This document shows, piece after piece, positions 1,675 through 55,177 of a stretch of 64,000 bases of DNA; the stretch's first letter is position 1, and each line of letters starts with the position of its first letter. The DNA comes from a virus (lineage: Duplodnaviria > Heunggongvirae > Uroviricota > Caudoviricetes). The notes beneath the pieces are model-generated. The model searched no databases, was not told where the DNA came from, and saw nothing but the letters and a program-made list of their open reading frames with translations. The stretch is taken from positions 37,154 through 101,153 of the IMG/VR virus record IMGVR_UViG_3300021400_002728. One strand, given 5' to 3'. The position numbers and the translations under genes were made by a program.

Positions 1675-1903
1675 TAGTATAATTTCCTTTCTTCGGTAGT
1701 TTCTCAGAGGTCTCAGGATGACCTCTGGGACACTTGTTAATAAGACATATATGTTTAATAATAGTGAAATAAATATCGATTATGTCTTAATCCATGAAAG
1801 AAATGTCTTACTTTCTTATGGGTTTCATTTCGTTCAACTAAATTCCTTTTAGCAAACTTAATATGCACAAATTTATTCTCCCTCCGTAAAAAGGCATCCA
1901 ATA

Positions 1904-6368: not shown

Positions 6369-6404
6369 ATTATATCATGTTGTATATACTTTGTAAATAG
6401 TTTT
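6369..6404 (-). promoter_or_regulatory. Promoter P-c: AAAACTATTTACA -N17- TGaTATAAT upstream of GyrB-like gene
   Basis: Family member; -35 region overlaps stop codon of gmk-like gene. Confidence 0.65.
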
Positions 6405-6927
6405 ATGAAAAAACTGTCTGAGGTTCAATTTCTTTCTTATAATTAAGGATCTCATTTACAATTGTAGGAATATCTTGAGTAGCGTCAATAATAAGATCGC
6501 ACATACTATTGAAGTTTCTGAACATGTACCAATCATTATCAAGTCTACCTAAAATATCAGGTCCTTTATCACCTCTGGCTAACATTCTAGAAGCACAATC
6601 ACAAGGTTCAAGATCAAGACCAATTACCTTAAACTTCGTATATCCATTTTCCTTAAGAGTTTCAATACCGGCAGGATCTACAATATAGAAGTCACATCCA
6701 TCAAGCATTTCTCCAGTTACGCAGTAATCATAACCGTTGAAATGAGTATAAGCAACCTTATTAACAAGTTTATCAAACTCATCTATTGTAATGTAGGTAT
6801 GACCACCTTCGCCTGGATAACGAGGAGGCCTAGTTGTGTAACTGTCAGGTGATTTATATCCAAGCTTATTAAGCTCAGATACTACTGTACTCTTACCACA
6901 ACCACTTGGTCCAATTATACAATATAA
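6403..6927 (-). CDS. gmk: Guanylate kinase-like P-loop nucleoside monophosphate kinase (start moved to MLYCIIGPSG; AAGGAG 8 nt upstream)
   Basis: P-loop IGPSGCGKST plus guanylate-kinase signature YTTRPPRYPGEGGHTYITIDEF (T-T-R-x-P-R-x-x-E-x-x-G-x-x-Y-x-F). Confidence 0.75.
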   Translation of the reverse strand, partial: LYCIIGPSGCGKSTVVSELNKLGYKSPDSYTTRPPRYPGEGGHTYITIDEFDKLVNKVAYTHFNGYDYCVTGEMLDGCDFYIVDPAGIETLKENGYTKFKVIGLDLEPCDCASRMLARGDKGPDILGRLDNDWYMFRNFNSMCDLIIDATQDIPTIVNEILNYKKEIEPQTVFS

Positions 6928-6965
6928 CATACACATTTCTCCTTTTATTCGTAAATAGTCCTTCA

Positions 6966-7429
6966 TTAGATATAATGAAAACCTTTTAATGTTCTTAAGT
7001 AACAAGTCATATTAGGATGCTTAACTGAACTATCAAAAATAGGCCAATCATCACCTTCCTTGACTCTCATAATTGCAGCAGCGACGCCAGCACTACGTGA
7101 GACTCCGCCGTCACAATGAACTATAATATCTTCTACTTTATCATACCATTGAGCAATAAAATTAGCTACTTTATCACCATCCTCGAATGACATACAAAAT
7201 TCTTTACCATCAATAACATCTTCTTTTTCTACATCATCGAAAGATAGCGATAAAATAGCTAGTACTTTGTTTTGATCAGAAATAAAGACCTGCGGCATTG
7301 TCTTATCCCAACTAGACCTAATTGAAATAATTAATGAAGTTCTATCATGTTTCTTTGTACAATATTCTTCGCATTTTTTACGACTAAATATTTTGTACTT
7401 ATTTTTAACTTCCTTTGACAAAAACATCT
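6966..7429 (-). CDS. Protein tyrosine/dual-specificity phosphatase (CX5R)
   Basis: Active-site signature VHCDGGVSRSAGVAAA (HCxxGxxRS); start moved to MFLSKEV (AAGGAG-8nt-ATG at 7427-7429) immediately after FtsH stop. Confidence 0.75.
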
Positions 7430-7431
7430 CT

Positions 7432-9279
7432 TTACTCCTTAAATAGCTCTTCGATCTCTTTACCACTTAAAGTTTCAACTTCAAGCAATTTTTTAGCAAG
7501 CTTTTCTACTTTATCATAATTTTCTTTAAGTAACTTTTTACATTCATTATATCTGTCTTTTGACATATTACTAAGTCGTTTAGTAAGATCTTTACCATCG
7601 ACTAAGTGAGTTTTACTTAATACTGAAATATCAAGTAAACCAAAATCATCATCAAATCCAAGATTTTCAATATATTGAGTCATACAATCAGTAGCTTGTG
7701 TAATATCATTTGAAGCACCAGTAGTAATAGATTCAAATTTAATTTCTTCAGAAGCTCTACCTGCATAACAAATCATTATTCTATGTTCAAAATCTTGTTT
7801 GGTGAGAAATACTGTTTCTTTATCAGCATTAATAACTGCACCACCAACACCAGATACTGTAGACTGAATACTCGCTCTTGCAATTGGTTCATTAAGTAAA
7901 TAGCTCATAACTGCGTGTCCAGCTTCATGGTATGCAATAATTTCTTTATCTTTAAGAAATTTCTCTTTCTTAGATCTATTACCTTTAAACTGTTTCTTAT
8001 CAATTGCCTCTTCAATACATGCACGATCAATAGCATCTTTATCAGTCATAACTGCAATAATAGACGCCTCATTGCATATAGCTTCAATATCTGCGCCAGT
8101 AAATCCAGAAATCTGTTTACTAATTTCTTCAAGATCATCTTTTAACTTATCATCGATTGTATATCTCTTTAAGTGATGTTCGAATAATTCTAATCGTTCT
8201 TGCCAATTTCTTGGTGGCATTACAATTATCTGTCTATCAAATCTACCTGCACGAACTAATGCTTTATCTAATGCATCAGGTCTATTAGTAGCCGCAATTA
8301 TAAAAATTCCTTCTCTACCAGTAAAACCATCCATTTCTTGAAGTAAAGCATCTATAGTTTGTTCATGCTCTGAGGTGCCTTTACCATTATCTCTATCAGT
8401 ACCAACTGCGTCTATTTCATCAATAAACACAATACAAGGTGCATTCTGTTTTGCGAGTTTGAATAGACCACGAACATTCTTTGCACCTACACCAACAAAT
8501 CTATCAATAAATTTAGAAGCATTCTGATATAAGAATGGCACATCAGCTTCACCAGCAATAGCTTTTGCTAGAAGTGTTTTACCACATCCAGGTGGTCCAC
8601 TAAATAAAATTCCTTTTGGTAGTTGTGCTCCTATTTTATCACCTATCTTAGGATTCTTCATAAGTTTAGTAATAAATTTTAAGTCATCTATAATTTCATC
8701 GTGTCCAATGACATCTTCAAATTTTTTAGTGCTCGTTTGAATAATATCCTCAGGTTTAACATCAGTAAAAACAGTTGACTTTAACATAACTACTAATACT
8801 ATTATCCATATAATTGGAAACGCCACAGACATAAAGGTTTCCATAATTTTAATAACAGTGGTATCTTCATTAGTTACGTTTAGAATAACACCATATTCTA
8901 GCAAATTCATTCTAAAATTATCACCACCAGGATATAATACCTGACGTTTATCAGCATTGGTATAGCCAGTATACTCATCTCGTTCTTGAATTGACATTTT
9001 TCTAGTTTCATCATTATATAAAGTAAATGTCATCCATTTATTATTCTTATTATAATCTACTGTATCTATATCACCTGCTTCTAGATAGTCTAGAAATTCA
9101 TCATATGATACTTTCTGAATATTAGTTTGTTTAGAAGCATCAATTCTAGTATATATAAAAGAAATAGTGAGCATTAACATTGCTACAGCTAATATCCAAT
9201 TTTTATACTTATGTATAAATTCTTTAGCTTTTTTCAATATAATAGTCTCCCTTCTAACAAAATAAAAGAGAGCTAGCAT
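7432..9279 (-). CDS. ftsH: FtsH-like membrane AAA+ ATPase / zinc metalloprotease
   Basis: N-terminal TM helices; Walker A GPPGCGKT; Walker B/SRH region; zinc site HEAGHAV; C-terminal ITTGASNDITQAT characteristic of FtsH protease domain; possible TTG start with AGAAGGGAG SD. Confidence 0.9.
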   Translation of the reverse strand: MLALFYFVRRETIILKKAKEFIHKYKNWILAVAMLMLTISFIYTRIDASKQTNIQKVSYDEFLDYLEAGDIDTVDYNKNNKWMTFTLYNDETRKMSIQERDEYTGYTNADKRQVLYPGGDNFRMNLLEYGVILNVTNEDTTVIKIMETFMSVAFPIIWIIVLVVMLKSTVFTDVKPEDIIQTSTKKFEDVIGHDEIIDDLKFITKLMKNPKIGDKIGAQLPKGILFSGPPGCGKTLLAKAIAGEADVPFLYQNASKFIDRFVGVGAKNVRGLFKLAKQNAPCIVFIDEIDAVGTDRDNGKGTSEHEQTIDALLQEMDGFTGREGIFIIAATNRPDALDKALVRAGRFDRQIIVMPPRNWQERLELFEHHLKRYTIDDKLKDDLEEISKQISGFTGADIEAICNEASIIAVMTDKDAIDRACIEEAIDKKQFKGNRSKKEKFLKDKEIIAYHEAGHAVMSYLLNEPIARASIQSTVSGVGGAVINADKETVFLTKQDFEHRIMICYAGRASEEIKFESITTGASNDITQATDCMTQYIENLGFDDDFGLLDISVLSKTHLVDGKDLTKRLSNMSKDRYNECKKLLKENYDKVEKLAKKLLEVETLSGKEIEELFKE

Positions 9280-9323: not shown

Positions 9324-10712
9324 TCACAGACTATTAATTTTGCCAATGAATAGACATTCATGTGCCTCTGTATCATAGATCATAAATACAAATGGACGAT
9401 CAAGAATAATCTCATGTACTTCTGTATCTCTAACAGGTGCAGCACTCTTCTCAAGAGTAATAGCTGTTACTGCTGCAGCTTCTGTGCCTTCAGGATTAAC
9501 ATCTACATAAGTCATCTGAATAACATCTGATACAGAAAGTGGTGTATCACTAAGATATTCCAAATAATCAGTATTGCCAGATCTAAATGCAGGTGCTAAA
9601 CCATTGTTATAAAGTGCATTGAAAAGATGATTCTCATCAGAAATCTTAAACTGAGGAATACCAATATTTACTTCATATCCATGAACTGGATTAGAAAGCA
9701 TATCATCTATATCAAGATCATTTACTGCAAAATTAGCGTTTTCCTTAGGAAGAATACCAATAAATACGAGATTTGAGTCTTCATAAGGCTTCATAAAACC
9801 TTCACACCAATTACTTTCATAATAAGTAGTATAACCATAATCGTACATCATAGTAACAGTAGAAGTAGATCCATCTGCATTAGTAAATACTGCTTCTCTA
9901 CAATTATGATCATCGAATGGATTTGCCCAAGTACCAGAGAAATAAAGTGCATTAATAAGTAAACCATCATTCAATCTCAATACTTCAGGTGATATAATAG
10001 AAGGAATACATCCATCTGTTGCTCCATCACACCAAGAATTGATAATTTCTGCACTTGTTGCATCACTAAAATCAAGTGACTGTACTCTTCCATTGTAATA
10101 TGCACTAAGTACATCTACATATGCTGGTGCAGGAGTAACTCCAGTATTAAACCATGCAGAATTTGCTATTGACATACGACTATTAAGATCATCAAACAGA
10201 TAACGTGAAATAAGTGCATTATTTCTTGATCTAATTCTAAGAAAATCATTAGGATAATTACATCCATTAAGATAATTGATTAATGCGTTATATGATTCTG
10301 TATTATCTCCAGCACCTTCAAGCAAAAGAGAAAGAGCCATATTCAAACTTGTTTCACTAAGAATAGTATTCTCATTAACATTATCAGATTCATGTTCTAC
10401 ATAATCAAGAACTGTAGTAATATTATTCAGTGAATAGTCACTGTCAAAATCATACTCAGTATTAACAATGAAGTCATCAGAATCCTCAATTAGTCTAAAT
10501 CTCTGATCTGAATCATCGTGCTTGCTAATTTTGGTATCATTTTCTGTTGAGTCAATTTTGCTTGGATTGTCATCAGTTACATCTACAATACTTACATTAT
10601 TAAGTGGATGATCTGTAGGTATGTCTGGAGTAACTCGAGTATCACCACATCCAGTGAATACTGTTATAACCATTGCTGCACAGAGTGCAATTGACAAAAT
10701 ACGCTTTTTCAT
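9324..10712 (-). CDS. Serpin (serine protease inhibitor), secreted lipoprotein
   Basis: Signal peptide + lipobox (VFTGC); serpin motifs NALYFSGTWANPF, reactive-centre-loop hinge NPEGTEAAAVTA, C-terminal DRPFVFMIYD. Confidence 0.85.
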   Translation of the reverse strand: MKKRILSIALCAAMVITVFTGCGDTRVTPDIPTDHPLNNVSIVDVTDDNPSKIDSTENDTKISKHDDSDQRFRLIEDSDDFIVNTEYDFDSDYSLNNITTVLDYVEHESDNVNENTILSETSLNMALSLLLEGAGDNTESYNALINYLNGCNYPNDFLRIRSRNNALISRYLFDDLNSRMSIANSAWFNTGVTPAPAYVDVLSAYYNGRVQSLDFSDATSAEIINSWCDGATDGCIPSIISPEVLRLNDGLLINALYFSGTWANPFDDHNCREAVFTNADGSTSTVTMMYDYGYTTYYESNWCEGFMKPYEDSNLVFIGILPKENANFAVNDLDIDDMLSNPVHGYEVNIGIPQFKISDENHLFNALYNNGLAPAFRSGNTDYLEYLSDTPLSVSDVIQMTYVDVNPEGTEAAAVTAITLEKSAAPVRDTEVHEIILDRPFVFMIYDTEAHECLFIGKINSL

Positions 10713-13147: not shown

Positions 13148-13183
13148 ATTATAACATGACTCTTATTGTTTGTAAATAGTATT
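13148..13183 (-). promoter_or_regulatory. Promoter P-e: AAAATACTATTTACA -N17- TGtTATAAT (sigmaA-type)
   Basis: -35 TTTACA, exactly 17-bp spacer, TG-extended -10; member of 18-copy family. Confidence 0.65.
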
Positions 13184-13459: not shown

Positions 13460-13495
13460 ATTATATCAAAGATAACTATTTTTGTAAATAGTTAA
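13460..13495 (-). promoter_or_regulatory. Promoter P-f: ACTATTTACA -N17- TATAAT
   Basis: -35 overlaps stop codon of GGDEF gene; 17-bp spacer. Confidence 0.6.
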
Positions 13496-14547
13496 ATGAT
13501 TTTTACACCATTTCGTCCATGCTGTTTTACATAGTATAGCTGTTCATCTGCTATTTTAATAATATTATTGTAATCAGTAACTTCATCATACATACATCCA
13601 CCAATAGAAACTGTTACTTGATATGTAATAAGTTCAGCTTGTATAGCATCTTTTATTCTCATCGCAGTATCATATAAAATTTCTTTATTTACATTATTAA
13701 GTACTACTACAAATTCCTCTCCACCAAATCGAATAAGATAATCCTCTGATCTAATTGTATTATTTACAGTATAAGCTAATTTTTGTAGTATAACATCACC
13801 TACATCGTGTCCATAAGTATCATTTATCTTTTTAAAAAAATCTATATCTAATAATAAAATACCGGCATTATCAATAGTAAAAATATTTGTACCATTATGA
13901 CAAATAGTCTTGAATATATTTCTATTATATGCACCAGTTAATGGATCATGTAATAATACATGATTTAATTTAATATTTGAAATAAATTTATCTTCAAATA
14001 CTTTTTCTAGATACTGAATTAAAATTTCTGATCCAATAATAAGAAATATATGTAAGGCAATAATAGTTAAGAAATCATCATAATGAATAAATATATTAGC
14101 AATTATAATATCAACTATCATAAGTGAATGAAATATTGCAGAATAACGTTTTGGAGACGCTAATCCTAAGAATATAAAAATACATTCTATAACCATTAAG
14201 CCTTCATTAGCATGCATACGATTTTCTAAATGAAAAACTGCCCAAGACGTACAAAAAATAATTATGTGCGTCATAACATATGATGCTGAAATACAAAGCT
14301 TATAGTTATTTGATTTTCGCATAATAATTATGTATATAGCTAAGAATATAAAAATAGAAGCTCTAGCAAGTAGAGTTTCTAAAGCTATTCTACCATATAA
14401 CATACAATCAGTAAACCAATAAAAGAACGATGTAATACTAGCAGTTAGAATAATATAAAATACCATCTTCTCATAGTATTCATATTTAGATTGATAAAAC
14501 TCATCTTTACGTTCTTTTATGATACTATTAGTTATGTTTGGATTCAT
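13492..14547 (-). CDS. Membrane-anchored diguanylate cyclase (multi-TM N-terminal domain + GGDEF)
   Basis: Six-seven hydrophobic helices then DPLTGAYNRNIF...GHDVGDVILQ...RFGGEEFVVVL (GGEEF active site). Confidence 0.85.
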   Translation of the reverse strand: MNPNITNSIIKERKDEFYQSKYEYYEKMVFYIILTASITSFFYWFTDCMLYGRIALETLLARASIFIFLAIYIIIMRKSNNYKLCISASYVMTHIIIFCTSWAVFHLENRMHANEGLMVIECIFIFLGLASPKRYSAIFHSLMIVDIIIANIFIHYDDFLTIIALHIFLIIGSEILIQYLEKVFEDKFISNIKLNHVLLHDPLTGAYNRNIFKTICHNGTNIFTIDNAGILLLDIDFFKKINDTYGHDVGDVILQKLAYTVNNTIRSEDYLIRFGGEEFVVVLNNVNKEILYDTAMRIKDAIQAELITYQVTVSIGGCMYDEVTDYNNIIKIADEQLYYVKQHGRNGVKII

Positions 14548-14568
14548 TATTTATCACCTATAAAAAAT

Positions 14569-14598
14569 AACGGATAGATATGTTGCAATCTACCCGTT
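14569..14598 (-). terminator. Hairpin (AACGGATAGAT/ATCTACCCGTT, one G-U) followed by UUUUUUAU on minus-strand RNA; intrinsic terminator after 14623..14874
   Basis: Seen in sequence. Confidence 0.55.
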
Positions 14599-14622
14599 AC
14601 TTTCTTAATACTTTGTTAATTT

Positions 14623-14874
14623 TTACCATAAGTTCTTACATACATTTACAATCCACTGTCCGATTGCTAAGAAACTTGGCATGGTAATTCCGAAAATACC
14701 AAGAAGTAATCCAATAAGCAAATATCCAATTACTATTCTAACGCAATCAATAACTTTCTTTTTGAGCGCAACCTTCATAATAAGACAAATAATTACAAGG
14801 ATTACCATATTAGTTGGCATTGATATTGCAAATGCTAAAAGATTGTTCAATAATGTACTTACTATACCTTCCAT
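14623..14874 (-). CDS. Small two-TM membrane protein
   Basis: ORF track; two hydrophobic helices; preceded ~70 nt upstream by conserved element 2. Confidence 0.5.
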   Translation of the reverse strand: MEGIVSTLLNNLLAFAISMPTNMVILVIICLIMKVALKKKVIDCVRIVIGYLLIGLLLGIFGITMPSFLAIGQWIVNVCKNLW

Positions 14875-14943
14875 CTTTATACTCTCCTTTATATTGTATA
14901 TTTATCAAAACTTAGTATTTTTCACATTCATACTATGTTATAA

Positions 14944-14956
14944 TTAAATAGCTCTT
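14944..14956 (-). promoter_or_regulatory. Conserved element 2 (AAGAGCTATTTAAT) overlapping the stop codon of the GT-C-like gene
   Basis: See element-2 family. Confidence 0.3.
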
Positions 14957-16359
14957 TAGTTATGTTGGTAAACTGTATACATATTATCATCAAAGATTAG
15001 TGTCCAGTCATCTGTATTTCTATTCATAGTTCTATTAACATAATGATTTTTCTTAGCTACTACATACTCATAGTCATCAACTAAGGCTAAAATCTCATCA
15101 TCTTCAACTAATGAATACCCACCATCTGATTCAGCCCAATATCCTTGTGATAACGCGAAATAGTCTTCTAGAATATGTGGTACACCACTAATCTCTTCAG
15201 AAAAGGCTTCACATCGACTATCTATTTTGATCTTTGTACATCCATTATACTCTAACCAACCACCTAAATCCATGGCTACATTATATATAGGAGCATCCTT
15301 GTCTTCAATAGAATTAGCAACCTTACCATAGTCATATTTAATATCTGTATGATGTACAAATAAAAAACATACTGCTATACATATTAACGAGATACATCCA
15401 TACATATAAGTATTATTGAGTTTATGAAATTCATCTACACAGCAGATTAAAAATACTACTGGAATAAACATAATACTAATATGTCTAAAATTTATTAAGG
15501 CTAATATTGCAATAATGAACACATAGTAATTAACAAAATAATTAGACTTATGTTTATAGATATAGTAAATAGTAAAACCAATTATTAAGGTTAACTTAAC
15601 ACCAGCGTAATCTTTTATTGATATTGGCAAAAGCTCATTTATACTAATTACATTAAATGCATTTGACATAAATGTTCGTACAATATATAATGATCCATCT
15701 ATACCATAAGGTGTTAATAAACTACATGTCATAAATAATGGTGTAAAACATATTAATGTCCAATCTATAAATGGTTTTTCTTTTTTATAAAAATATGGAA
15801 CCATTATTAGACCATGATATAAAAATACTGCCTGATGCATATTAGCTGATAAAATCAATATGGGAAAAATAGGAAGTAAATATTTAATAGACTTCTTTTC
15901 CTTATATAATTCTAGGAATATTAAATGAGCTAATAAACAAATAACAGTTATAATCTGTGGCCTAATATTGATCATATAATCACTACATATCAATATAGCT
16001 GCAATAGATCCAATAAATGCCTTCTTTTTATCATGTGTCTTTATCATGATAAACGCGACAGATACAAAATATAACACTATATTCTGAACTAATACAAATA
16101 GAATATGTCCAGTTGTTCCAAATCTATCTATAATGGCTAAACAAACTGCATATAGCCACTGTTGAACCGTTATTGGAAAGTTATTTAAGTGACTAGCAGT
16201 ATGAAAATTTCCATTAAGTATATCTCTACCACTCATAATCTCAAAAAACATATCATTATCTTGAGATTTACGTAATAAAATAATGTATAAAATGAGCATA
16301 AATAGACACATCAATACAATAGGAAAGTATTTATTTATTTTGTTACATACATTTTTCAT
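14956..16359 (-). CDS. Polytopic membrane protein (about 11-12 TM helices + C-terminal soluble domain), GT-C fold glycosyltransferase-like (GtrC/YfhO/PMT-like)
   Basis: Hydrophobicity pattern only; adjacency to GT2 GtrB-like gene; no specific motif verified. Confidence 0.45.
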   Translation of the reverse strand: MKNVCNKINKYFPIVLMCLFMLILYIILLRKSQDNDMFFEIMSGRDILNGNFHTASHLNNFPITVQQWLYAVCLAIIDRFGTTGHILFVLVQNIVLYFVSVAFIMIKTHDKKKAFIGSIAAILICSDYMINIRPQIITVICLLAHLIFLELYKEKKSIKYLLPIFPILILSANMHQAVFLYHGLIMVPYFYKKEKPFIDWTLICFTPLFMTCSLLTPYGIDGSLYIVRTFMSNAFNVISINELLPISIKDYAGVKLTLIIGFTIYYIYKHKSNYFVNYYVFIIAILALINFRHISIMFIPVVFLICCVDEFHKLNNTYMYGCISLICIAVCFLFVHHTDIKYDYGKVANSIEDKDAPIYNVAMDLGGWLEYNGCTKIKIDSRCEAFSEEISGVPHILEDYFALSQGYWAESDGGYSLVEDDEILALVDDYEYVVAKKNHYVNRTMNRNTDDWTLIFDDNMYTVYQHN

Positions 16360-16363: not shown

Positions 16364-17509
16364 TCAATCCTTTTTAACTTTAATTTCTAGAATGCCTAAG
16401 AAAAAGCTACTAAACATAAGTTGTATTCCACATACCAGTAATACAAGCATTGGAATAGTTAATCTTAGCATTTTTGAAGCATCTAAGTTACCAAAATTTG
16501 TATTTGACCATATTACCAATGCAACAATAGATCCAATTAACCCAACTACAAATAGAATTGCTCCTACTAAAATTCCTCTATTCATAGTTAGTTTAACTAG
16601 AAAATTATCAATCCTACACATTGGTATAAATTTAGATATTGCTGCATATCGTTTAGTTATTACATAGAATAGTATTAACTGAAAACCAATGATTGTTGAT
16701 ACTGCTCCATATACCAATGTATTGACGTCAAATTTAATATTACGAACAATAATAGGATCTAAAATAATCTTAGTACTTAGTATAATTCCAGCTATATGAA
16801 ATAACAATCCTGGATATAAGAATAACCAATTTGGGGCATGCATAAGCAAGAACGTCAAATGTCTCCAACCATCATACCAACTTCTTAGGTGTGGTGGACG
16901 GTCACGACCATCTTTTTTGAGAGTAGTAGGAACTTCACATATTTTAAGATTATGCAAAGTTGCTTGAACTACCATCTCACTGGCATATTCCATACCAGTA
17001 GTATGAAGATTAAGATCTAATATACTCTGTCTATTATATCCACGAAGACCACAATGAAAGTCTTTAATAGGACTTTTATATAGAATTCGACCAATAGTAG
17101 ATAATACTGGATTTCCTAAGTATCTGTGAAGTAGTGGCATGGCACCTTTTTCTATACCACCTTTGAATCGATTGCCCATAACCAATTCATATCCTTCACG
17201 AAGTTTTTCTACAAAAGGCATTAAGTTATTGAAATCATAAGAGTCATCAGAATCTCCCATAATGACATATTTACCTAATGCAGCATGACTGCCGCCAATT
17301 AAGGCAGCACCATAACCTTTTTCTTCAATGTTTACTACTCTTGCTCCTGCATTTCTAGCAATGTCTTGAGAACCATCTATACTGCCATTATCTGCAATAA
17401 GAACTTCACCATCAATTTGATTTTCTTTGAGAAATGTCTGTGCTTTACTGATACAAGTTTCTAATGTTCGTGACTCATTTAAGCAAGGCATTAGAATAGT
17501 TAATTCCAT
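16364..17509 (-). CDS. Family-2 glycosyltransferase with C-terminal TM helices (GtrB/CsbB/ArnC-like polyprenyl-phosphate sugar transferase)
   Basis: ILMPCLNES...LIADNGSIDGS...MGDSDDSYD (DxD) GT-A fold motifs; C-terminal hydrophobic helices. Confidence 0.8.
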   Translation of the reverse strand: MELTILMPCLNESRTLETCISKAQTFLKENQIDGEVLIADNGSIDGSQDIARNAGARVVNIEEKGYGAALIGGSHAALGKYVIMGDSDDSYDFNNLMPFVEKLREGYELVMGNRFKGGIEKGAMPLLHRYLGNPVLSTIGRILYKSPIKDFHCGLRGYNRQSILDLNLHTTGMEYASEMVVQATLHNLKICEVPTTLKKDGRDRPPHLRSWYDGWRHLTFLLMHAPNWLFLYPGLLFHIAGIILSTKIILDPIIVRNIKFDVNTLVYGAVSTIIGFQLILFYVITKRYAAISKFIPMCRIDNFLVKLTMNRGILVGAILFVVGLIGSIVALVIWSNTNFGNLDASKMLRLTIPMLVLLVCGIQLMFSSFFLGILEIKVKKD

Positions 17510-18127
17510 TTAATCAATTCCCTTCTTTTTTAATAGAGCTACAAAATGAAGATTTGAATCAAAGAAGATATGACATAAAAATGTGTATAAGTCTAACTTA
17601 TCTGCATAGTAAACAATTTCAAGATTATTATCCTCGAACATTTTATTCCATTGTTCTTCTGTAAGATAATTGTAAGGTAAGCTCACATTGTATTGTCTGT
17701 TACCTACATAATCCATCATTTTTAACTTTATTAATGACCACCATCCATGAAGAATGTGATCTTTTATTATAATGTATTCATCAGTTACTCTAACAACCTC
17801 AGAAAATAGCTTTTCTGGATCATCTGCATGATGTAATACATCTATCATCATAGTTGTGTTTACTTCATTTGTATGATATGGAATTGTACGACCGTCATAT
17901 TCAAGTACTGGAATAAATGTCTTATCTCTAACTAAAACATCTATTCCAGTAATTTGAATGTTATTCTTTTTAATTAGAATACTATCAATTTTGCCATCAC
18001 CTGCGCCAATATCAACTATATTGTTAATATTAAACATATCTATAATAGTAGTTATCCACATACTAAGCTGAGACATTCGACGATCATATATAAACCAATC
18101 ATGAAATTTGCTTAATAATGTTTTCAA
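17510..18127 (-). CDS. Class I SAM-dependent methyltransferase
   Basis: Motif I VDIGAGDGK; Rossmann-like alternation. Confidence 0.55.
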   Translation of the reverse strand: MKTLLSKFHDWFIYDRRMSQLSMWITTIIDMFNINNIVDIGAGDGKIDSILIKKNNIQITGIDVLVRDKTFIPVLEYDGRTIPYHTNEVNTTMMIDVLHHADDPEKLFSEVVRVTDEYIIIKDHILHGWWSLIKLKMMDYVGNRQYNVSLPYNYLTEEQWNKMFEDNNLEIVYYADKLDLYTFLCHIFFDSNLHFVALLKKKGID

Positions 18128-18515
18128 TTATTCCACTCCATTTGTTCATGTATAAATATATCATACATGCTAATTCAATAGAGACCATTAAACAGATATT
18201 ATCCTTCTTGCTGATTAAAAGTTGTATGAATATTGGAAGTATACACACAATACCTATAGAAGACCTCAGGATGACTAAGGAGATACCTAGAGCGACTATA
18301 TAAATAATGTCTATAGGCTGATTTTTATATTTCAACAAGAGTAATCCTAGAGTTCCAAAAAGTAGTACTGGATGTACTAACATACAAAAGCTAATATAGT
18401 TTACAAGAATTAATATGAATGGTATTTCATTCTTTTTATAGTCATAAATTATAACAGCGATTGCAGTTAGTACAAATATTATACTACAAACAAGATTCGT
18501 CATGTTCACCGACAT
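18099..18515 (-). CDS. Small 4-TM membrane protein, possibly GtrA-like flippase
   Basis: Size and 4 predicted TM helices; position at head of glycosylation cassette; start likely internal (MTNLV). Confidence 0.4.
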   Translation of the reverse strand: MSVNMTNLVCSIIFVLTAIAVIIYDYKKNEIPFILILVNYISFCMLVHPVLLFGTLGLLLLKYKNQPIDIIYIVALGISLVILRSSIGIVCILPIFIQLLISKKDNICLMVSIELACMIYLYMNKWSGIIENIIKQIS

Positions 18516-19554
18516 ATACCTTTAGAGGAATTTTGCTCATCCAAATAGTATTGTCATTCATAAGTGCTCTATACTTCTTAGCATCGTCTGAAGTGAAATA
18601 ACCTTCATCAGTGTATTCATATTCACGATTACGATTATCTCTCATAAAACTCTTATAAAAACGATCAATTTGTTCTGCGAGTTTTTCCTCGTTTTCTTTT
18701 GAATAATCAAGTTGCAAATACTTCTTAGAAGCCGAATTTCCAGGACAAATGAGATAACCTTTATTGATAGTAGTATTAAGCTCATTTTCCATAGCCCACT
18801 TATACAAAATCATTGATCCAAGGTAACCATCAAATGTTACAGCTTCTTCAGTAGGATGACCTGTCTTATAGTCAAGAATGATAACATCATCTCCTCTATA
18901 ATCTACACGGTCAGCAACATATGATACTGCACAAGGAACGGTATAACCAATAGATTTAGCATAAAGATTTTCAGCTCTTCCTCTATGCTCAGTTACACAC
19001 TTAAGAGTTTTCTCATCAAGTTCTGATCTTGGATGAAGATAATCCTTAATGTCATAATAACCAGTAATATATTCATCAAGTTTAGTTTTGTCCATATCAG
19101 GATTTGATTCTAATACAGTCTTTTCAAGTTCCCAGAGTTTATCTCTATTTCTCTCTTCACCGGGAAGAAGATAATAATCTTCAAGAACTTTATGAAATGC
19201 TGTACCAATTGCAGTAGCATCATTTGCGCCTTCTTCAAAGAAATTCTGCATAAGACTAAGTGCAGGATTGCTTCTATAACCTTTCATAAATGAAGGTGAA
19301 AAATAATCTCCACTATATCGATTCAACAAGGACTGCAGGTTAGACCCGTAGCCCTTGTAAATAGCGAGATTGCGTGTTTTATGTTTATTATTATATGCCT
19401 TGATTATTTTTGCAACGGCTTCCTCAACATCTGCAAAAAGTGCTTTAGCATCCATAGTGCTATTATCAATCTTGGCAATGTAAGTGACTAAATAGTCCTT
19501 ACCATTTTCAGTAATGATTTCCATGTCAATCTCCTTAATACCTATCGAAAGCAA
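18484..19554 (-). CDS. PD-(D/E)XK nuclease, Cas4/RecB-like exonuclease family
   Basis: VIILDYKTGHPTEE (D-Y-K-T-G motif typical of RecB-family nuclease core). Confidence 0.55.
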   Translation of the reverse strand: MLSIGIKEIDMEIITENGKDYLVTYIAKIDNSTMDAKALFADVEEAVAKIIKAYNNKHKTRNLAIYKGYGSNLQSLLNRYSGDYFSPSFMKGYRSNPALSLMQNFFEEGANDATAIGTAFHKVLEDYYLLPGEERNRDKLWELEKTVLESNPDMDKTKLDEYITGYYDIKDYLHPRSELDEKTLKCVTEHRGRAENLYAKSIGYTVPCAVSYVADRVDYRGDDVIILDYKTGHPTEEAVTFDGYLGSMILYKWAMENELNTTINKGYLICPGNSASKKYLQLDYSKENEEKLAEQIDRFYKSFMRDNRNREYEYTDEGYFTSDDAKKYRALMNDNTIWMSKIPLKVYVGEHDESCL

Positions 19555-20506
19555 TTCTAGTTTTCATACTATTTGCTTCGAATGAGTCTGCCAAAAGCAA
19601 CTTTGTGAATGTAGTAGTGCTAGGCTTATAGATAAATGCACCAAGTAAATCAGGCTGTCTAAGGAATGATGTCTGAAGTGCAGAGAACTGTCCATCTCTC
19701 CATCTAGAAAGAAGTGCAATTTCATAAAATCTAGATTCAACACCTACATTTCCAATATTATCAATAATTTCCTGTATTTTTTCCTTAGCTGTTAAAATAT
19801 CCTTAACATCAGGAATCTTCTGCTCAAGTGTAACATTAACCTTTTCTGCAGTACCCTTATTCATAGAGTCAAGTGATGCTTGAGTGGCGTGCTCAGTAAT
19901 CATAAGTGTTGAATAAATACCAATATTCTTAGGTGTAAATTCAGTATCGTATGATCTTCTGTACATACCCGCACACTTCTTACAGAAATGTCTAATACCA
20001 TGATTACATGAGAGGAATGTTCTTACGTGGATCTTTCCTCTCTTAGGAATATCCTTATAATCCTCAACGTATTTACCAAGTTCCATTACCCAGTGATTGC
20101 GAACCTTGTAATTGAAAGTATCTTCATCAATAGGTAACTTCATTTCAGTTCCTTCACTTCCACAATCATCAATCTCAATAGTCATATCATCACATGAACT
20201 AATGAGTTTCTTGTAGAAGTAACCTGATTCTGTAATATCAGTTATATTAGCTGCAATAACTGACTGCATGAATTTCTTTGATTCCTGTTCAGAATAGTTA
20301 TTGTTACGTCTTGCAACTGACTTCTTAATATCATCAGTATTCTTTGTAAAAGAAGTGATCTTTTCGATCTTATCCATTGCTTTCTGATCATTATCAATAA
20401 ACGCAGAAGCAAAGTCACTAACTGTAGGTACCACACAGTGTTCAAACATTGCTGAACCTAATTTGTGATACTTTTCAACGTACTCTTTTCTTGTTAATGT
20501 CTCCAT
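19535..20506 (-). CDS. Multisubunit RNA polymerase beta-prime, C-terminal fragment (bridge-helix region)
   Basis: STLMITEHATQASLDSMNKGTAEK aligns with beta-prime bridge helix [22 protein letters not shown]; immediately downstream of beta-prime N fragment. Confidence 0.6.
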   Translation of the reverse strand: METLTRKEYVEKYHKLGSAMFEHCVVPTVSDFASAFIDNDQKAMDKIEKITSFTKNTDDIKKSVARRNNNYSEQESKKFMQSVIAANITDITESGYFYKKLISSCDDMTIEIDDCGSEGTEMKLPIDEDTFNYKVRNHWVMELGKYVEDYKDIPKRGKIHVRTFLSCNHGIRHFCKKCAGMYRRSYDTEFTPKNIGIYSTLMITEHATQASLDSMNKGTAEKVNVTLEQKIPDVKDILTAKEKIQEIIDNIGNVGVESRFYEIALLSRWRDGQFSALQTSFLRQPDLLGAFIYKPSTTTFTKLLLADSFEANSMKTRIAFDRY

Positions 20507-20931
20507 TATTTCTTCTCCTCAAGAATAATATTTGTTCCATCGTCATACTGTAAAGTTAACGTTGTGTCTTCAATTAACATATTTACATGAGTTTCGGTCT
20601 TAACTCCAGTAGTAGTATCTTCATCAGTGAAGGTAGCACTAAAGTTATTCTCTATATCATCTTTAATTTCTTCATATGTTCCAGACTGAACAACTCGATC
20701 TTCACCAGCATCTACAGCAACATCAACTTTATTGTTACTGTAGATTTCAACTGCGACAGTAAACTGCCCATAGTCTTTGGTGTAGATTTTACTAGTTGGT
20801 TTGGTGAGAAGGATGATAGTGAGAACAATAAGACCTACAATCATAACACCAAAGAAAATTAATGAAGGTGTGTCAATACTACCATTCTTTTTCTTCTTAG
20901 GCTTTGGTTTAGTCTCTTTTTTCTCTTCCAT
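20506..20931 (-). CDS. Hypothetical single-pass membrane protein inside the RNAP operon
   Basis: Lys-rich N-terminus then TM helix LIFFGVMIVGLIVLTIILL; acidic C-terminal domain. Confidence 0.5.
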   Translation of the reverse strand: MEEKKETKPKPKKKKNGSIDTPSLIFFGVMIVGLIVLTIILLTKPTSKIYTKDYGQFTVAVEIYSNNKVDVAVDAGEDRVVQSGTYEEIKDDIENNFSATFTDEDTTTGVKTETHVNMLIEDTTLTLQYDDGTNIILEEKK

Positions 20932-20937
20932 TTTTTT

Positions 20938-22173
20938 TTACACCTCTTCACCAATCAATGTTGCAACATATTCGAATTCTTCGAGAATACCATTTCTGAT
21001 ACTAGAGTTAGAACCTTCGATGTAGTTATTACTTGCAAGAAGTTTCTTAGCTTCCTCACAGGCTTCTTTAGAGTAAAGAGCAATAACATTAAGTGAGTCA
21101 CCATCAACGTCGGCAGCAAGTCCATCATATACAATAGGGTTTGCCTGAATAACAAACTGCTCCTGTTCTAACTTAGAAAATACAGGTTTCATAGCGATAA
21201 TTGACTTAGCACCAATGGTAGGCTGACGGTTAAACAATACTAAGTAATCTTCATCAGCTAATTCCTGATTGATTCCATCAATATCAGTATACCCATTCTC
21301 ATCTGTATACTTAGCAAACAGACGAGGATAAAGTGTAGGAATGAAGTAATATCCAATCTTAAGAGTATCTTCGTCAAGACTAAAGTTATTAGTCATAACC
21401 GCACGGATCATTCCAGTTTCAGACTGACCCTTAAGTTCGGCATCAATAATATTACGCTTATTCTTTGCAAGGATCTGGAATAACTCATGATAGAGTTTAT
21501 CAAGCTCTCTACAAACAATGAAACGAAGATTGATCTCATTGAAGATAGTAAGCTTACTATTCTTCTGAAGAGATTCATATCTATTGTTCTGACGAAGCAT
21601 ATTGATGTAGATAGTATTCAGATTACCGATAAAATATTTATCACCCTGGAAAGTAATCTGTCTGAATGAAGTATGAGGAATACTGATATTTCTGTGTACA
21701 TTCTCATTGTACCAAGATTCAGAAACTCCGATACTCATCAATGCGTCCTTACCAATCAGAATCTTCTTCTCATCATACTTAGAGAAGTCTGCCTTAAGGT
21801 CGAATTCTACGTATTCACCTTCATAAAGGAAACCTCTACTATTGAGAAGATTATCGATCATGGTCTTATCATAAGCACCATAGTTGATAACTCTGTTAGG
21901 AAGGTCGAAGTTAAACTTTATATAGAAGTTTGGAATGTTTCTCTTGTTGAGAACTCTGCAGTTACACTTAGGACAAATTCCAGGTTTTGTCTGCTCACCG
22001 CAATAACATTTACCAAACTTACCAAAAATCTTTTCAGAGAAAATTCCATCTTCATGAAAGAGGTAACGATCACCATCCTTAATCTTTCTAGCCTGAAAAA
22101 GCTTTTCAGACGTTACCTGATTCATAGGATTCTCTGTAATATGTACTGGTCTAATCGTCGCTTTCATCGGCAT
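20938..22173 (-). CDS. Multisubunit RNA polymerase beta-prime, N-terminal fragment (zinc finger + catalytic NADFDGD-like loop)
   Basis: CYCGEQTKPGICPKCNCRV (cf. [23 protein letters not shown]); LFNRQPTIGAKSIIAMKP (cf. LNRAPTLHRLGIQAFEP); AADVDGDSLNV (cf. NADFDGDQMAV). Confidence 0.85.
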   Translation of the reverse strand: MPMKATIRPVHITENPMNQVTSEKLFQARKIKDGDRYLFHEDGIFSEKIFGKFGKCYCGEQTKPGICPKCNCRVLNKRNIPNFYIKFNFDLPNRVINYGAYDKTMIDNLLNSRGFLYEGEYVEFDLKADFSKYDEKKILIGKDALMSIGVSESWYNENVHRNISIPHTSFRQITFQGDKYFIGNLNTIYINMLRQNNRYESLQKNSKLTIFNEINLRFIVCRELDKLYHELFQILAKNKRNIIDAELKGQSETGMIRAVMTNNFSLDEDTLKIGYYFIPTLYPRLFAKYTDENGYTDIDGINQELADEDYLVLFNRQPTIGAKSIIAMKPVFSKLEQEQFVIQANPIVYDGLAADVDGDSLNVIALYSKEACEEAKKLLASNNYIEGSNSSIRNGILEEFEYVATLIGEEV

Positions 22174-31449: not shown

Positions 31450-31485
31450 ATTATAACATGAATATAGAAGTTTGTAAATAGATAA
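31450..31485 (-). promoter_or_regulatory. Promoter P-h: ATTTATCTATTTACA -N17- TGtTATAAT
   Basis: Family member upstream of Pnkp. Confidence 0.6.
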
Positions 31486-31558: not shown

Positions 31559-32434
31559 TTAGTTGTTGCCATAAAGCAGCTGAGCATATTCTGAATCTTT
31601 GTCAAGAATGATTGTAGAATCGCCATGTGCTAATGCTTCAAGTGAATCAAGACCTCTTACAAAGTTATAAAAATCTGCTTTTTCAGGATCATTATAAGCA
31701 TCAGACAAAATTCTCATGTACTCAGCTTCACCTTCTGCAGTAATCTTTGCTGCTTCAGCTTCAGCATCTGCGATTGTAATGGCTACCTGACGGTCAGTCT
31801 CATTTCTAATCTTACGAGCGTCTGCTTCACCAGTTGCAGTATATCCTGCAGCAATATTATTACGTTCAGAGATCATTCTCTCATAAACTGCATTTTTATT
31901 ATCATCAGGAAGATCAAGTGCTTTAATCTCAGCAAGATCGATTACAATACCATACTGAGAAATATCAGTATTTGCAGCAGTAGTAATCATATTAGTAAGT
32001 GTATTACCTCTTGCAGCAATAATCTCATCCTGAGTCATAGCCGAAATTGTATTCTTAGTTGCGTTATATACCGCAGCTTCAATTCTCTCTTCAGCTCTTG
32101 CCTGTGTAGCACCAACTGTCTGGTAGTACTTAACAGGATCTACTACTGACCAAATAACATAGTCATCAGCGATCATTGATTTCTTATCAGCAGTAATTAC
32201 ATCAGATGCAGGAATATCAAAGAGCATATCACCTGTGTAAACCTTTACAGTACTCTCAATGAATGGAGTATGTAAGTGAAAACCAGTATTTGAAACTACT
32301 TCTTTTGCTCTACCAAGTCGAACAATAATTGCTGTCTCATTGGTACGAACAGTGTACGCGGATGAAAATAACAAGATCAGACCAACGATGAAAAGTAAAA
32401 CTCCGCTAATGGTACCGATAATAAACTTCTTCAT
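31559..32434 (-). CDS. SPFH/band-7 protein, HflC-like
   Basis: N-terminal TM anchor then VRTNETAIIVRLGRAKEVVSNTGFHLHTPFIESTVKVYTGDMLFD...ITADKKSMIADDYVIW (HflC/prohibitin pattern). Confidence 0.75.
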   Translation of the reverse strand: MKKFIIGTISGVLLFIVGLILLFSSAYTVRTNETAIIVRLGRAKEVVSNTGFHLHTPFIESTVKVYTGDMLFDIPASDVITADKKSMIADDYVIWSVVDPVKYYQTVGATQARAEERIEAAVYNATKNTISAMTQDEIIAARGNTLTNMITTAANTDISQYGIVIDLAEIKALDLPDDNKNAVYERMISERNNIAAGYTATGEADARKIRNETDRQVAITIADAEAEAAKITAEGEAEYMRILSDAYNDPEKADFYNFVRGLDSLEALAHGDSTIILDKDSEYAQLLYGNN

Positions 32435-33423
32435 TAGTTTTCACCTCCATTAGTATAGGTATTTGTAGTAGTATTAGCAAATGAATCGAGAGGGTACATA
32501 GTAGATGTAGATCCATCAGTAATAATGATCTTACAATTAGGAAGTACCTCTTCCATCTTCTCATAGAACATTCTCTGTTTAGTTACGAGAGGATAAAGCT
32601 TATACTGCTCATACATCTGATTAAATCTTTCAACCTGACCATTTGCTTCAGCAATTCTTGCAGCTTTTTCAGCTTCAGCTGCCTGAATAACTGCATCGGC
32701 AGAAGCATCTGCAGCAGGAATCTCACTATTCTGATACTGTAATGCATTATTCTTTGCAGTATCTGCACCCTGCTTAGCAGTTTCAACAGATTTGAATGCT
32801 GCAATAATTTCAGCAGTTGGTGGTTCAGAGTCCTGAACTGTAATATTAACTACAGTAAGACCAATATTTCTTCTATCAAGTTCGTTAATCATTGCTTCCT
32901 TGATATCAGCCTGAATCTGACCTTTTCCAGTAGTCATTGCTTCATCAACAGTATAGTTAGAAACTACTGTACGAATATTTGCAAGAGCAATATTTGAAAG
33001 TGTTGTTTCAGGATTAGCTGAATTATAGACATAAGCAACTGGATCAGATACACGATATTCAAGATAGAAATCGATATTCAAAAGGTTGAAATCTGATGTA
33101 ATCATGATACCGTTATCTGTATCTGTGATATTCTGACCATCTTCTGAAACAATATAACCAATTCCAGTACCATGTGTCGTCATATCAACTTTCTTGACAG
33201 ACTGCCAAGGTGCTTTGAAGTAGAATCCAGCAGTATCAACTCTTACGATCGTACCAAACTGTGTAACGATGGCATTATGCTGCTCATCTACTGAGTAGAA
33301 ACATTTAAACAAACATATAATAAGGAAAAGTCCACCAATACATGCGAGTACAATGTTTCTTACTTTCTTTGAGGCATCAAGAACCTCTTTTTCATAAGAA
33401 CTCATTTCATTATTCTTACTCAT
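32434..33423 (-). CDS. SPFH/band-7 protein, HflK-like (start moved to MSKNNEM; AAGGAG-7nt-ATG)
   Basis: TM anchor, SPFH core (DEQHNAIVTQFGTIVRV...), Ala/Gln-rich coiled coil (AAEAEKAARIAEANGQ). Confidence 0.75.
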   Translation of the reverse strand: MSKNNEMSSYEKEVLDASKKVRNIVLACIGGLFLIICLFKCFYSVDEQHNAIVTQFGTIVRVDTAGFYFKAPWQSVKKVDMTTHGTGIGYIVSEDGQNITDTDNGIMITSDFNLLNIDFYLEYRVSDPVAYVYNSANPETTLSNIALANIRTVVSNYTVDEAMTTGKGQIQADIKEAMINELDRRNIGLTVVNITVQDSEPPTAEIIAAFKSVETAKQGADTAKNNALQYQNSEIPAADASADAVIQAAEAEKAARIAEANGQVERFNQMYEQYKLYPLVTKQRMFYEKMEEVLPNCKIIITDGSTSTMYPLDSFANTTTNTYTNGGEN

Positions 33424-33472: not shown

Positions 33473-33508
33473 ATCATATAATATATCAAAGAAATTGTAA
33501 ATAGTTTT
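33473..33508 (-). promoter_or_regulatory. Promoter P-i: AAAAACTATTTACA -N17- TATGAT
   Basis: Family member. Confidence 0.55.
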
Positions 33509-33523: not shown

Positions 33524-34249
33524 TTAGATACGTTCATATTTAGGCATAGGACTTACTTTGTGGAGATTAATTCTATGTCTACGTTCGATATTCTCTTTCT
33601 TATCATTATCATCAATCTCACCAGTTGCAATATAATGATCGAGTTCTGCATAAGTGAAACCGAGATTATCTTCATCAGTCTTGCCACAAAGACCATCAGA
33701 AGGTGTCTTATGTACAAGTTCTGCAGGAAGACCAAGTGCATCACCGATCTGAAGCATTTCAGTTACAGTGAATTCGCAACAAGGACTGAAATCACCAGCA
33801 GAATCACCAAACTTAGTAGAATAACCAACATAATCTTCAGAACAGTTACATGTATTGCACACTCTACCACCTTCAGGAAGAGACTGTGCAATAGCATAAA
33901 GAGTAGTCATACGAAGTCTAGGCGGAATATTTTCTTTGGTTGCTTGAGAAGGATTATCAAGCTGTCCTAAAAGACCCTTGTATGCGTCTGCAATGTTGAT
34001 TGTATAACTTCTAATACCTAACAGATCAATTACTTTCTGGCTATCAGAAATATCTTTCTGTTCTCCATTTGGCATCATAACACCAACAACACGATCTTTA
34101 CCAAGAGCATCTACAAGCAGTTTAGCGATGATTGTTGAGTCCTTACCACCAGAAATACCGATTACTGCACTAGCAGTAGGACCATTCTTTGTGAACCAGC
34201 TTCTTATCCAGCTCTTAATTTCACTAATTTCAAAATTTACATCAAACAT
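33524..34249 (-). CDS. nadE: NH3-dependent NAD+ synthetase
   Basis: PP-loop IGISGGKDSTIIAKL; size 241 aa. Confidence 0.8.
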   Translation of the reverse strand: MFDVNFEISEIKSWIRSWFTKNGPTASAVIGISGGKDSTIIAKLLVDALGKDRVVGVMMPNGEQKDISDSQKVIDLLGIRSYTINIADAYKGLLGQLDNPSQATKENIPPRLRMTTLYAIAQSLPEGGRVCNTCNCSEDYVGYSTKFGDSAGDFSPCCEFTVTEMLQIGDALGLPAELVHKTPSDGLCGKTDEDNLGFTYAELDHYIATGEIDDNDKKENIERRHRINLHKVSPMPKYERI

Positions 34250-35722: not shown

Positions 35723-35758
35723 ATTATAACATGCTACAATACACTTGTAAATAGTTTT
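35723..35758 (-). promoter_or_regulatory. Promoter P-j: AAAAACTATTTACA -N17- TATAAT
   Basis: Family member heading the helicase / NAD operon. Confidence 0.6.
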
Positions 35759-40438: not shown

Positions 40439-40474
40439 ATTATAACATGTGTTTTGATCTATGTAAATAGTTTA
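40439..40474 (-). promoter_or_regulatory. Promoter P-k: AAACTATTTACA -N17- TGtTATAAT
   Basis: Family member. Confidence 0.6.
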
Positions 40475-44518: not shown

Positions 44519-44554
44519 ATTATAACAAGAAATGTTTGCTTTGTAAATAGTTTT
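44519..44554 (-). promoter_or_regulatory. Promoter P-m: AAAAACTATTTACA -N17- TGtTATAAT
   Basis: Family member. Confidence 0.6.
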
Positions 44555-55160: not shown

Positions 55161-55177
55161 TTTTATTTCCTCGTTAT

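Follow-up and report, generated by a model that had tools for sequence, protein, structure and literature searches.

A divergent ftsH gene and a host-type hflK-hflC pair on a very large, probably phage-like element of rumen Lachnospiraceae

The ftsH-like gene and the hflK-hflC pair

The stretch of DNA analysed here, 64,000 nucleotides from positions 37,154 to 101,153 of the IMG/VR record IMGVR_UViG_3300021400_002728 (hereafter the window), encodes an FtsH-like protease and, about 22 kb away on the same replicon and strand, an HflK-HflC pair (Table 1). Membrane-protein quality control in bacteria and organelles centres on the FtsH-HflKC assembly, and the tuning of FtsH by HflKC is debated. The window probably belongs to a phage-like element, very large (~400 kb) and uncultivated, whose hosts are rumen Lachnospiraceae of the Butyrivibrio/Pseudobutyrivibrio type. 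All three genes are intact and under purifying selection, with ratios of nonsynonymous to synonymous substitution (dN/dS) of ~0.23-0.28 for ftsH, 0.07-0.14 for hflK and 0.09-0.19 for hflC.

The initial annotation had proposed a full-length FtsH homologue, and the domain analysis bore this out. The open reading frame (ORF) matched the Pfam families AAA (7.7e-44), Peptidase_M41 (1.2e-33), AAA_lid_3 (7.2e-11) and FtsH_ext (1.2e-7; 32.3 bits against a cut-off of 25.5), and the TIGR01241 profile covered it end to end (residues 34-609). Two hydrophobic helices were found, at residues 28-46 and ~145-170. In an AlphaFold2 model (predicted local distance difference test score 81.2), these are the first and second transmembrane (TM) helices, which flank an alpha/beta extracytoplasmic domain and are followed by the AAA and M41 domains; this model found its top PDB match in a model of full-length E. 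coli FtsH, with an alignment spanning 621 columns. Motif conservation was scored in an alignment of 25 clade sequences, namely the window protein and 24 relatives. The AAA+ motifs were kept in all 25 (GPPGCGKT Walker A, IDEID Walker B, and R343 and R346 as the arginines of the second region of homology), the pore loop [F/Y]261-V262-G263 was conservatively kept, and the M41 residues H451-E452-A-G-H455, E511 and D525 (TGASND) were invariant. ATP-dependent proteolysis as a hexamer is a property of the FtsH family. The two TM helices with the extracytoplasmic domain, the AAA+ module and the M41 zinc site are thus all present, while the equivalog score fell short. As the TIGR01241 score of 463.9 bits lies below the equivalog cut-off of 600, and the 10 nearest cluster representatives also scored 377-484 bits, all below 600, the window FtsH represents a divergent subfamily other than the housekeeping equivalog. 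The start of the gene is probably the TTG at 9237, rather than the annotated ATG at 9279, because a Shine-Dalgarno (SD)-like GAAGGGAG precedes the TTG and the resulting 601-aa product matches the 600-602 aa of the relatives.

HflK scored 190.9 bits against TIGR01933 (equivalog cut-off 159.4), matched Band_7 in Pfam (1.6e-22) and has a TM helix at residues 20-46; its top PDB match was E. coli HflK (1.1e-34), aligned over E. coli HflK residues 85-358. HflC scored 158 bits against TIGR01932 (cut-off 134.4), with E. coli HflC as the top PDB match (8.2e-29). Both proteins therefore exceed the equivalog cut-offs and are not flotillin-like SPFH proteins, so that their proposed identity held, and the Peptidase_M41, AAA and, for HflK, Band_7 matches expected in the initial annotation were all obtained. 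An AAGGAG SD sequence precedes the hflK ATG at 33423, and the hflK/hflC junction is a one-base overlap (TAATG) with a GGAGG site within the 3' end of hflK. The window thus has the same three families, the same domain orders and the same coupled hflK-hflC operon as the E. coli FtsH-HflK/HflC complex (PDB 7VHP, 7WI3 and 9CZ2). It differs from that complex in that the proteins are just 25-31% identical, the extracytoplasmic domain of FtsH is unalignable by sequence, ftsH scores below the equivalog cut-off, the genes lie on a mobile element with a Gram-positive host, and the partners are of unlike age.

Table 1. Features of the window and of related sequences (aa, amino acids)
Feature	Sequence	Position	Strand	Description
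ftsH-like	window	7432..9279	minus	membrane-anchored AAA+/M41 zinc protease; longest ORF 615 aa; 601 aa from probable TTG start 9237
hflK	window	32434..33423	minus	single-pass SPFH protein, 329 aa, host-derived
hflC	window	31559..32434	minus	single-pass SPFH protein, 291 aa, translationally coupled to hflK
ftsH-unit promoter	window	13148..13176	minus	next motif copy downstream at 6369..6397
hflKC-unit promoter	window	35723..35751	minus	next motif copy downstream at 31450..31478, ahead of pnkp/rnl
Remaining promoter motif copies	window	6369-6397, 13460-13488, 31450-31478, 40439-40467, 44519-44547, 45210-45238, 46732-46760, 48662-48690, 54660-54688, 58931-58959, 61017-61045	minus	
Weaker promoter-like site	window	33473..33501	minus	TTTACA-N17-TATGAT, directly upstream of hflK; consensus match only
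VanZ remnant	window	1773..1862	minus	30 aa; 63% identity to L104 VanZ (tblastn)
P-loop kinase-like	window	6403-6930	minus	weak guanylate-kinase similarity
Dual-specificity-phosphatase-like	window	6966-7427	minus	small protein; DSPc 1.6e-6, below Pfam cut-off
Serpin	window	9324-10712	minus	Pfam 9.6e-66
GGDEF diguanylate-cyclase, membrane GT2 glycosyltransferase and YkuD L,D-transpeptidase homologues	window	13492-14547, 16364-17509, 40795-42030	minus	envelope/signalling cargo
Split RNA polymerase beta-like set	window	18484-24403	minus	411-aa and 750-aa pieces
Kinase-phosphatase-ligase fusion	window	29216-31417	minus	733 aa
NAD synthase	window	33524-34249	minus	NAD+ salvage
NMNAT-HD fusion	window	34254-35174	minus	NAD+ salvage
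Isochorismatase/PncA-like	window	35184-35690	minus	NAD+ salvage
NAPRTase/NAMPT-like	window	43118-44335	minus	NAD+ salvage
Coiled-coil protein	window	61053-63845	minus	930 aa
hflK	401-kb relative, ERZ28653698 scaffold_18	30,005-30,997		
ftsH	401-kb relative, ERZ28653698 scaffold_18	55,081-56,883		
VanZ-SecY-SecE cassette	L104	16966-18989		intact
VanZ-SecY-SecE cassette	L099	16973-19000		intact
SecY-SecE without VanZ	L012	6190-7686		
Metallo-beta-lactamase-fold protein	L099 (441-kb relative)	19756-20664		Pfam match anti-Pycsar Apyc1
FtsH homologue	pCY360, NC_014389.1 (L105)	14194-16020		closest named relative
Intein-interrupted GyrB-like gene	L010 (250-kb IMG/VR contig)	17149-19563		Intein_splicing 3.7e-13
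PgaC/PgaD-like glycosyltransferase	L006 (467-kb contig)	16798-18645		615-aa ORF

Lineages, linkage and transcription of ftsH and hflKC

At least 120 FtsH homologues at 57-95% identity to the window protein were found, many of them on metagenomic contigs of 220-441 kb, and an identical protein is present on sheep-rumen metagenome contigs. FtsHs of bacteria and of cultured phages showed just 33-45% identity. When 1.84 billion cluster representatives were searched with a profile, the matches to the window FtsH were full-length (~600 aa), and none of the 20 nearest 50%-cluster representatives sampled had a name, all being proteins from metagenomes. Among named proteins, the nearest was WP_013282610.1, which is 46.7% identical across 99% of the length and is encoded by megaplasmid pCY360 of Butyrivibrio proteoclasticus B316, a rumen isolate. 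This homologue carries the extracytoplasmic signature of the clade (Y..EF, YMT..L.N and D.R..LYPG..FR..LLE) and shares with the clade FtsHs the ARxSIQ..SGVGG block and the catalytic motifs. With its Lachnospiraceae host and rumen habitat, it points to the likely host group of the element. pCY360 differs in being a plasmid with a replication initiation protein and mating-pair-formation typing, and its first 31 kb have, besides FtsH, only RNase H in common with the element. The Pseudomonas jumbo phages MIJ3 and PA5oct also carry an FtsH-like protein whose function is not known, and the PA5oct gene is transcribed throughout infection (PMC6892783, PMC7318152). The FtsH of cultured phages is annotated as ftsH in several GenBank records. 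The MIJ3/PA5oct protein is ~36% identical over 69% of the window query, which makes theirs an independent lineage, and no hflK/hflC or SecY has been reported in these phages.

Within the clade, identity to the window FtsH was 60-92% in the AAA/M41 domains, 38-61% in the extracytoplasmic domain and lower still in the TM helices, so that the exposed and transmembrane parts are the fastest-evolving regions of the protein. The extracytoplasmic domain nonetheless has many clade-invariant residues. Against the 441-kb relative, the product of the nearby GyrB-like gene was 97% identical, FtsH 69% and the adjacent serpin 66%, with ~10-fold higher dN for FtsH and serpin. Taken together, these comparisons mark FtsH as a long-standing core gene of the clade, of an old mobile-element lineage with a lineage-specific extracytoplasmic domain.

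The serpin gene lies directly upstream of ftsH, and its product has a lipoprotein-type signal peptide (MKKRILSIALCAAMVITVFTGC) and evolves rapidly (dN/dS 0.43). The adjacency of the two genes is retained in the 401-kb and 441-kb relatives, not in a 413-kb relative. The phosphatase-like gene directly downstream of ftsH is missing at the corresponding position in the 401-kb and 441-kb relatives, and the P-loop kinase-like gene follows it in the window.

In relatives, FtsH travels with SecY and SecE. Topoisomerase II genes adjoin ftsH in the 401-kb and 441-kb relatives, and just downstream of them is a VanZ-SecY-SecE cassette; a 290-kb IMG/VR contig carries SecY-SecE between the topoisomerase genes and ftsH. 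In these sister genomes, SecY/SecE and ftsH are a few kb apart. The SecY of the relatives passes TIGR00967 (295 against a cut-off of 253.6) and forms a lineage of its own, with 29 clusters at 44-100% identity, Lachnospiraceae SecYs being at most 40% identical. SecY and SecE thus appear to be element-specific and as old as FtsH. Because only a 30-aa VanZ fragment remains in the window where relatives carry the cassette, the cassette appears to have been deleted there. SecY is itself a textbook substrate of E. coli FtsH, and HflKC modulates its degradation there. No report of phage-borne SecY/SecE was found in the literature searched. The metallo-beta-lactamase-fold protein of the 441-kb relative is encoded near its SecY/SecE cassette.

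The history of hflKC reads differently. Named Lachnospiraceae proteins, at 72-79% identity, are among the best HflK matches, and the isolate Lachnospiraceae bacterium XBD2001 (FPAN01000002.1) has chromosomal homologues (HflK 74-77% and HflC 70-71% identical) in plainly bacterial surroundings (GH9 and GGDEF proteins, AsnS, PcrA). In a neighbour-joining tree, the HflK group of the window was nested among Lachnospiraceae HflKs. The SPFH domain of HflK is 80-85% and the coiled coil 68-80% identical to the bacterial copies, which is within the bacterium-versus-bacterium range, and just 2 fixed substitutions were specific to the phage HflK group. The window operon has the same gene order as that of XBD2001; it differs in that it is flanked by nadE and pnkp/rnl in a phage-like array, encodes a divergent N-terminus and TM helix, and has the one-base overlap where XBD2001 has a 10-nt spacer. 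These data identify hflKC as a younger cassette, captured later from Lachnospiraceae, with exposed domains of ordinary host type, and nothing in the sequences suggests adaptation to a divergent partner. In the E. coli complex, HflK Arg191 contacts FtsH residues 62-64; R151 of the window HflK, which aligns near Arg191 (the numbering is not exactly matched), is invariant in the phage and bacterial HflKs.

In close relatives, hflKC occupies the same nadE/pnkp site, and its identity resembles that of neighbouring genes (89/88% and 78/76%). The shared site and the similar identities indicate that hflKC was inherited vertically among these relatives. The pair lies at different loci in more distant relatives (L004 and L006) and was also found on further large Firmicute phage-like contigs (L005, L010 and L011). 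One of these, L010, is another large element with captured hflKC; its GyrB-like gene is interrupted by an intein, and it also carries SpoIID and YkuD homologues. A tblastn search of the GenBank phage records with the HflK and HflC proteins returned no genuine HflK or HflC; the matches were prohibitin-like SPFH proteins encoded singly. Such proteins of large phages (phrog_200; Fusobacterium phages Fnu1, FNU2 and FNU3; RaK2-like phages) share the SPFH fold and a membrane anchor with the window pair; they differ in being single genes at ~28% identity, without HflK/HflC pairing and of function not known, and are expected to miss the HflK/HflC equivalog cut-offs. No Butyrivibrio record was among the ten plasmid HflK matches listed. 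In the literature searched, phage hflKC was not found described, though phage FtsH is (MIJ3, PA5oct).

A sigmaA-type extended -10 motif, TTTACA-N14-TGnTATAAT, occurs 13 times in the window with at most one mismatch, against 0.15 copies expected by chance. Because all 13 copies are intergenic and on the coding strand, they suggest that host RNA polymerase transcribes much of the region, despite the split RNA polymerase of the element. Transcription-unit boundaries were deduced from the promoter positions, which place ftsH in a unit starting at 13176 (a 185-aa ORF, HD, a 154-aa ORF, RNase H, serpin, ftsH, the phosphatase-like and the P-loop kinase genes) and hflKC in a unit starting at 35751 (pncA-like, NMNAT-HD, nadE, hflK, hflC). 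The hflKC pair thus appears to be the tail of a transcription unit with PncA-like, NMNAT-HD and NAD synthase genes.

The three genes also recur together on the 401-kb relative (Table 1). IMG/VR, whose contigs may be incomplete, was scanned twice for FtsH by means of motifs invariant in the clade. Among its 2.9 million contigs, the HflK type of the window was present on six and clade-type FtsH on one, with zero overlap. The sole contig with clade-type FtsH, 3300032167_003270 (290 kb), had no detectable hflK, and clade FtsH was not detected on the hflKC contig of 467 kb, where a 615-aa ORF, an FtsH candidate by its size, proved to be a PgaC/PgaD-like glycosyltransferase. A single-protein search of IMG/VR with FtsH matched nothing. 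The match lists of FtsH and SecY had seven longest-contig sizes in common, and those of FtsH and HflK one. Co-inheritance of ftsH and hflKC is, on these counts, unproven rather than disproved.

Nature of the element

ORFs of at least 100 aa tile the window, all on the minus strand and covering 91% of it, so that 64 kb are one-directional. The GC content is ~33% (27-38%), and no tRNAs were found in the window. It encodes both topoisomerase II subunits, a Dda-like helicase, a DnaB/DnaG/DnaC-type replisome and a UvsX-like recombinase. The two pieces of the split multisubunit RNA polymerase matched the PHROG category 'RNA polymerase beta subunit' and lie beside a PDDEXK nuclease; no close homologue was found in GenBank phages or PLSDB plasmids, save one unrelated Pontibacillus plasmid record. 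The 733-aa fusion joins a polynucleotide kinase (AAA_33), a metallophosphatase and a T4-type RNA ligase 1, is 95% conserved in the 401-kb relative and looks like a one-protein tRNA-repair (Pnkp-Rnl) enzyme. The NAD-salvage set of the window agrees with the 'NAD-jumbo phage' gene content of gut jumbo phages (PMC11662467). The YkuD homologue was recognised through a 72%-identical match in L093. The 930-aa protein has weak, sub-threshold coiled-coil Pfam matches (Apolipoprotein-like) and no PHROG match; it could be tape-measure-like or a scaffold and is the sole hint of a structural gene in the window. Relatives of 290-467 kb were found in IMG/VR and on ENA/Logan contigs, with HNH endonucleases in relatives; the GenBank phages contained no close relative of the element.

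The initial annotation had called these genes phage-encoded. This is supported by the phage-type core (split RNA polymerase, UvsX, Dda, own replisome and one-directional arrays) and by relatives in viral collections. PHROG and Pfam searches of the window ORFs and of selected relatives' ORFs found no capsid, terminase, portal or tail gene, in a search that saw ~15% of a roughly 400-kb genome. Because no virion gene was seen, phage identity, and with it the term 'infection', is inferred; we nevertheless regard the element as likely to be a giant phage.

Whatever the function of the three genes, the element might instead be a giant plasmid-like element of Lachnospiraceae, mis-called viral, with these genes as plasmid cargo. 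The missing virion genes and the location of the closest named FtsH on a megaplasmid fit this view, and there is a precedent in the 'Hodor' conjugative megaplasmids of gut Bacillota, which carry a SecY-SecG-SecE operon and have been wrongly called huge phages by geNomad and VirSorter2 (PMC12934698). Like the present clade, Hodors are elements of more than 300 kb in gut Bacillota with their own Sec genes and viral calls by standard pipelines. They differ in a GC content of 44-47%, in Rep_3, ParAB, type IV secretion system and sortase genes, in their human-gut habitat and in having no reported FtsH/HflK (PMC12934698), whereas the present clade has a GC content of 33%, comes from the rumen and carries a phage-type replisome and split RNA polymerase. 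Among the annotated ORFs, which represent part of the genome, no Rep_3, ParA/ParB, type IV secretion system or sortase was found. Together with the strictly one-directional gene arrangement, the split polymerase subunit with PHROG matches, the T4-type Pnkp-RNA ligase, the UvsX-like and Dda-like proteins, the relatives' HNH endonucleases, the NAD-salvage set and the little that pCY360 shares, this makes a plasmid origin distinctly improbable.

The parallel that had been drawn with the control of lambda CII/CIII stability found no counterpart here. No integrase, repressor or CII/CIII-like protein was matched by Pfam or PHROG in the scanned window ORFs, a search that short CIII-like peptides would escape; nothing like lysogeny control was seen, and the host is a Firmicute. 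A reading of the genes as a defence system was rejected, as PADLOC returned only generic AAA similarity (IetA, TRIP13), without any match for HflK, HflC or the serpin.

Possible roles in membrane-protein turnover

We favour, at a probability of about one half, the reading that the element carries a membrane-protein quality-control kit, that is, two modules of unlike age acting on host machinery, not a sealed, self-contained holoenzyme. FtsH hexamers would insert in the host membrane and act on membrane and regulatory proteins by degrading or extracting them. From the added HflKC, probably together with host HflK/HflC, SPFH enclosures would form that corral FtsH and limit the access of membrane substrates. 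Because the sequence of HflKC is conserved, it would fit host FtsH, and possibly the FtsH of the element as well. With both modules read from one class of host sigmaA-type promoters, the element may expand and re-tune membrane-protein turnover while it loads the membrane with its own envelope proteins in a long infection. In E. coli, HflKC encloses FtsH and modulates the degradation of membrane substrates such as SecY, restricting their access to FtsH (PMC12048511).

Several points weigh against this reading. Besides the virion genes missing from the ORFs searched, the IMG/VR absence calls for FtsH and hflK depend on motif scans and possibly incomplete contigs; repeated capture of hflKC in an FtsH-bearing clade could equally mean that HflKC serves the element's own FtsH; and a PDB sequence search with the N-terminal 164 aa of FtsH matched no FtsH periplasmic domain.

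A rival reading is the holoenzyme proposed in the initial annotation, in which the FtsH, HflK and HflC of the element assemble with one another, replace the host complex and retarget proteolysis. Part of that proposal stands: the three genes are intact, lie on one replicon and strand, share a promoter class and recur on the 401-kb relative. The strong constraint on hflKC (dN/dS 0.07-0.19), its presence at two sites in clade relatives and on other large contigs, and the clade-invariant residues in the FtsH extracytoplasmic domain, as for a binding surface, also speak for it. One dedicated, co-evolved phage complex is not supported. The modules differ in age and origin, an old core FtsH and a later-captured hflKC found at differing loci; HflK is not remodelled relative to host HflK; the exposed and transmembrane parts of FtsH evolve fastest; the genes are 22 kb apart in separate transcription units; and the IMG/VR contigs with hflKC and with FtsH do not overlap. 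A dedicated viral holoenzyme is therefore unlikely.

Alternatively, the host-type HflKC may act as a decoy or brake that sequesters or throttles host FtsH and so shields element proteins, while the FtsH of the element escapes and works independently. This would suit the host-like character of HflK/HflC in all exposed domains, the occurrence of hflKC on large phage-like contigs without detected clade FtsH, the lineage-specific extracytoplasmic domain of FtsH, which has no detectable similarity to solved FtsH periplasmic domains, and the restriction of FtsH by HflKC in E. coli. Recent work, however, found that open E. coli HflKC assemblies promote, rather than block, degradation of membrane substrates (PMC12048511), and there is no evidence of host FtsH attacking any product of the element. 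Sequence data alone do not separate a brake from the two-module kit; we consider the brake quite unlikely.

An HflKC that serves as a membrane scaffold unrelated to either FtsH (in lipid domains, respiration control or pre-lysis membrane stabilisation) would be in line with the lone SPFH/prohibitin proteins of large phages without FtsH, with hflKC on contigs without detected FtsH and with the broader, though FtsH-linked, roles of E. coli HflKC, such as aerobic respiration (PMC12005517), yet it is very unlikely, as the genes are genuine HflK and HflC equivalogs in a canonical coupled pair, every host cell supplies FtsH, and the clade also carries FtsH and SecYE, which point to membrane-protein turnover.

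Beyond the two-module kit lies a wider and doubtful proposal, that a clade of giant Lachnospiraceae viruses runs a private membrane insertion-degradation pathway of virus-specific SecY/SecE and FtsH, with captured HflKC in some lineages. If this is true, neither an FtsH-HflKC holoenzyme nor a Sec-FtsH axis would have been known from a virus before. The literature and collections searched yielded no description of a mobile-element FtsH combined with host-derived HflKC and, in sister genomes, with SecYE. The natural pairing of an old FtsH with host HflKC would amount to a ready-made specificity experiment. The pCY360 FtsH homologue in cultured Butyrivibrio proteoclasticus B316 is a tractable proxy. 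If the parts do not cooperate, this would simply be one more large element with auxiliary genes of host type. The element has, on our reading, long kept its own FtsH lineage and repeatedly added host HflKC, with SecY/SecE in sisters, all proteins that are functionally linked in E. coli; if they cooperate, giant phages would reshape membrane proteostasis, a level at which host take-over has so far not been described.

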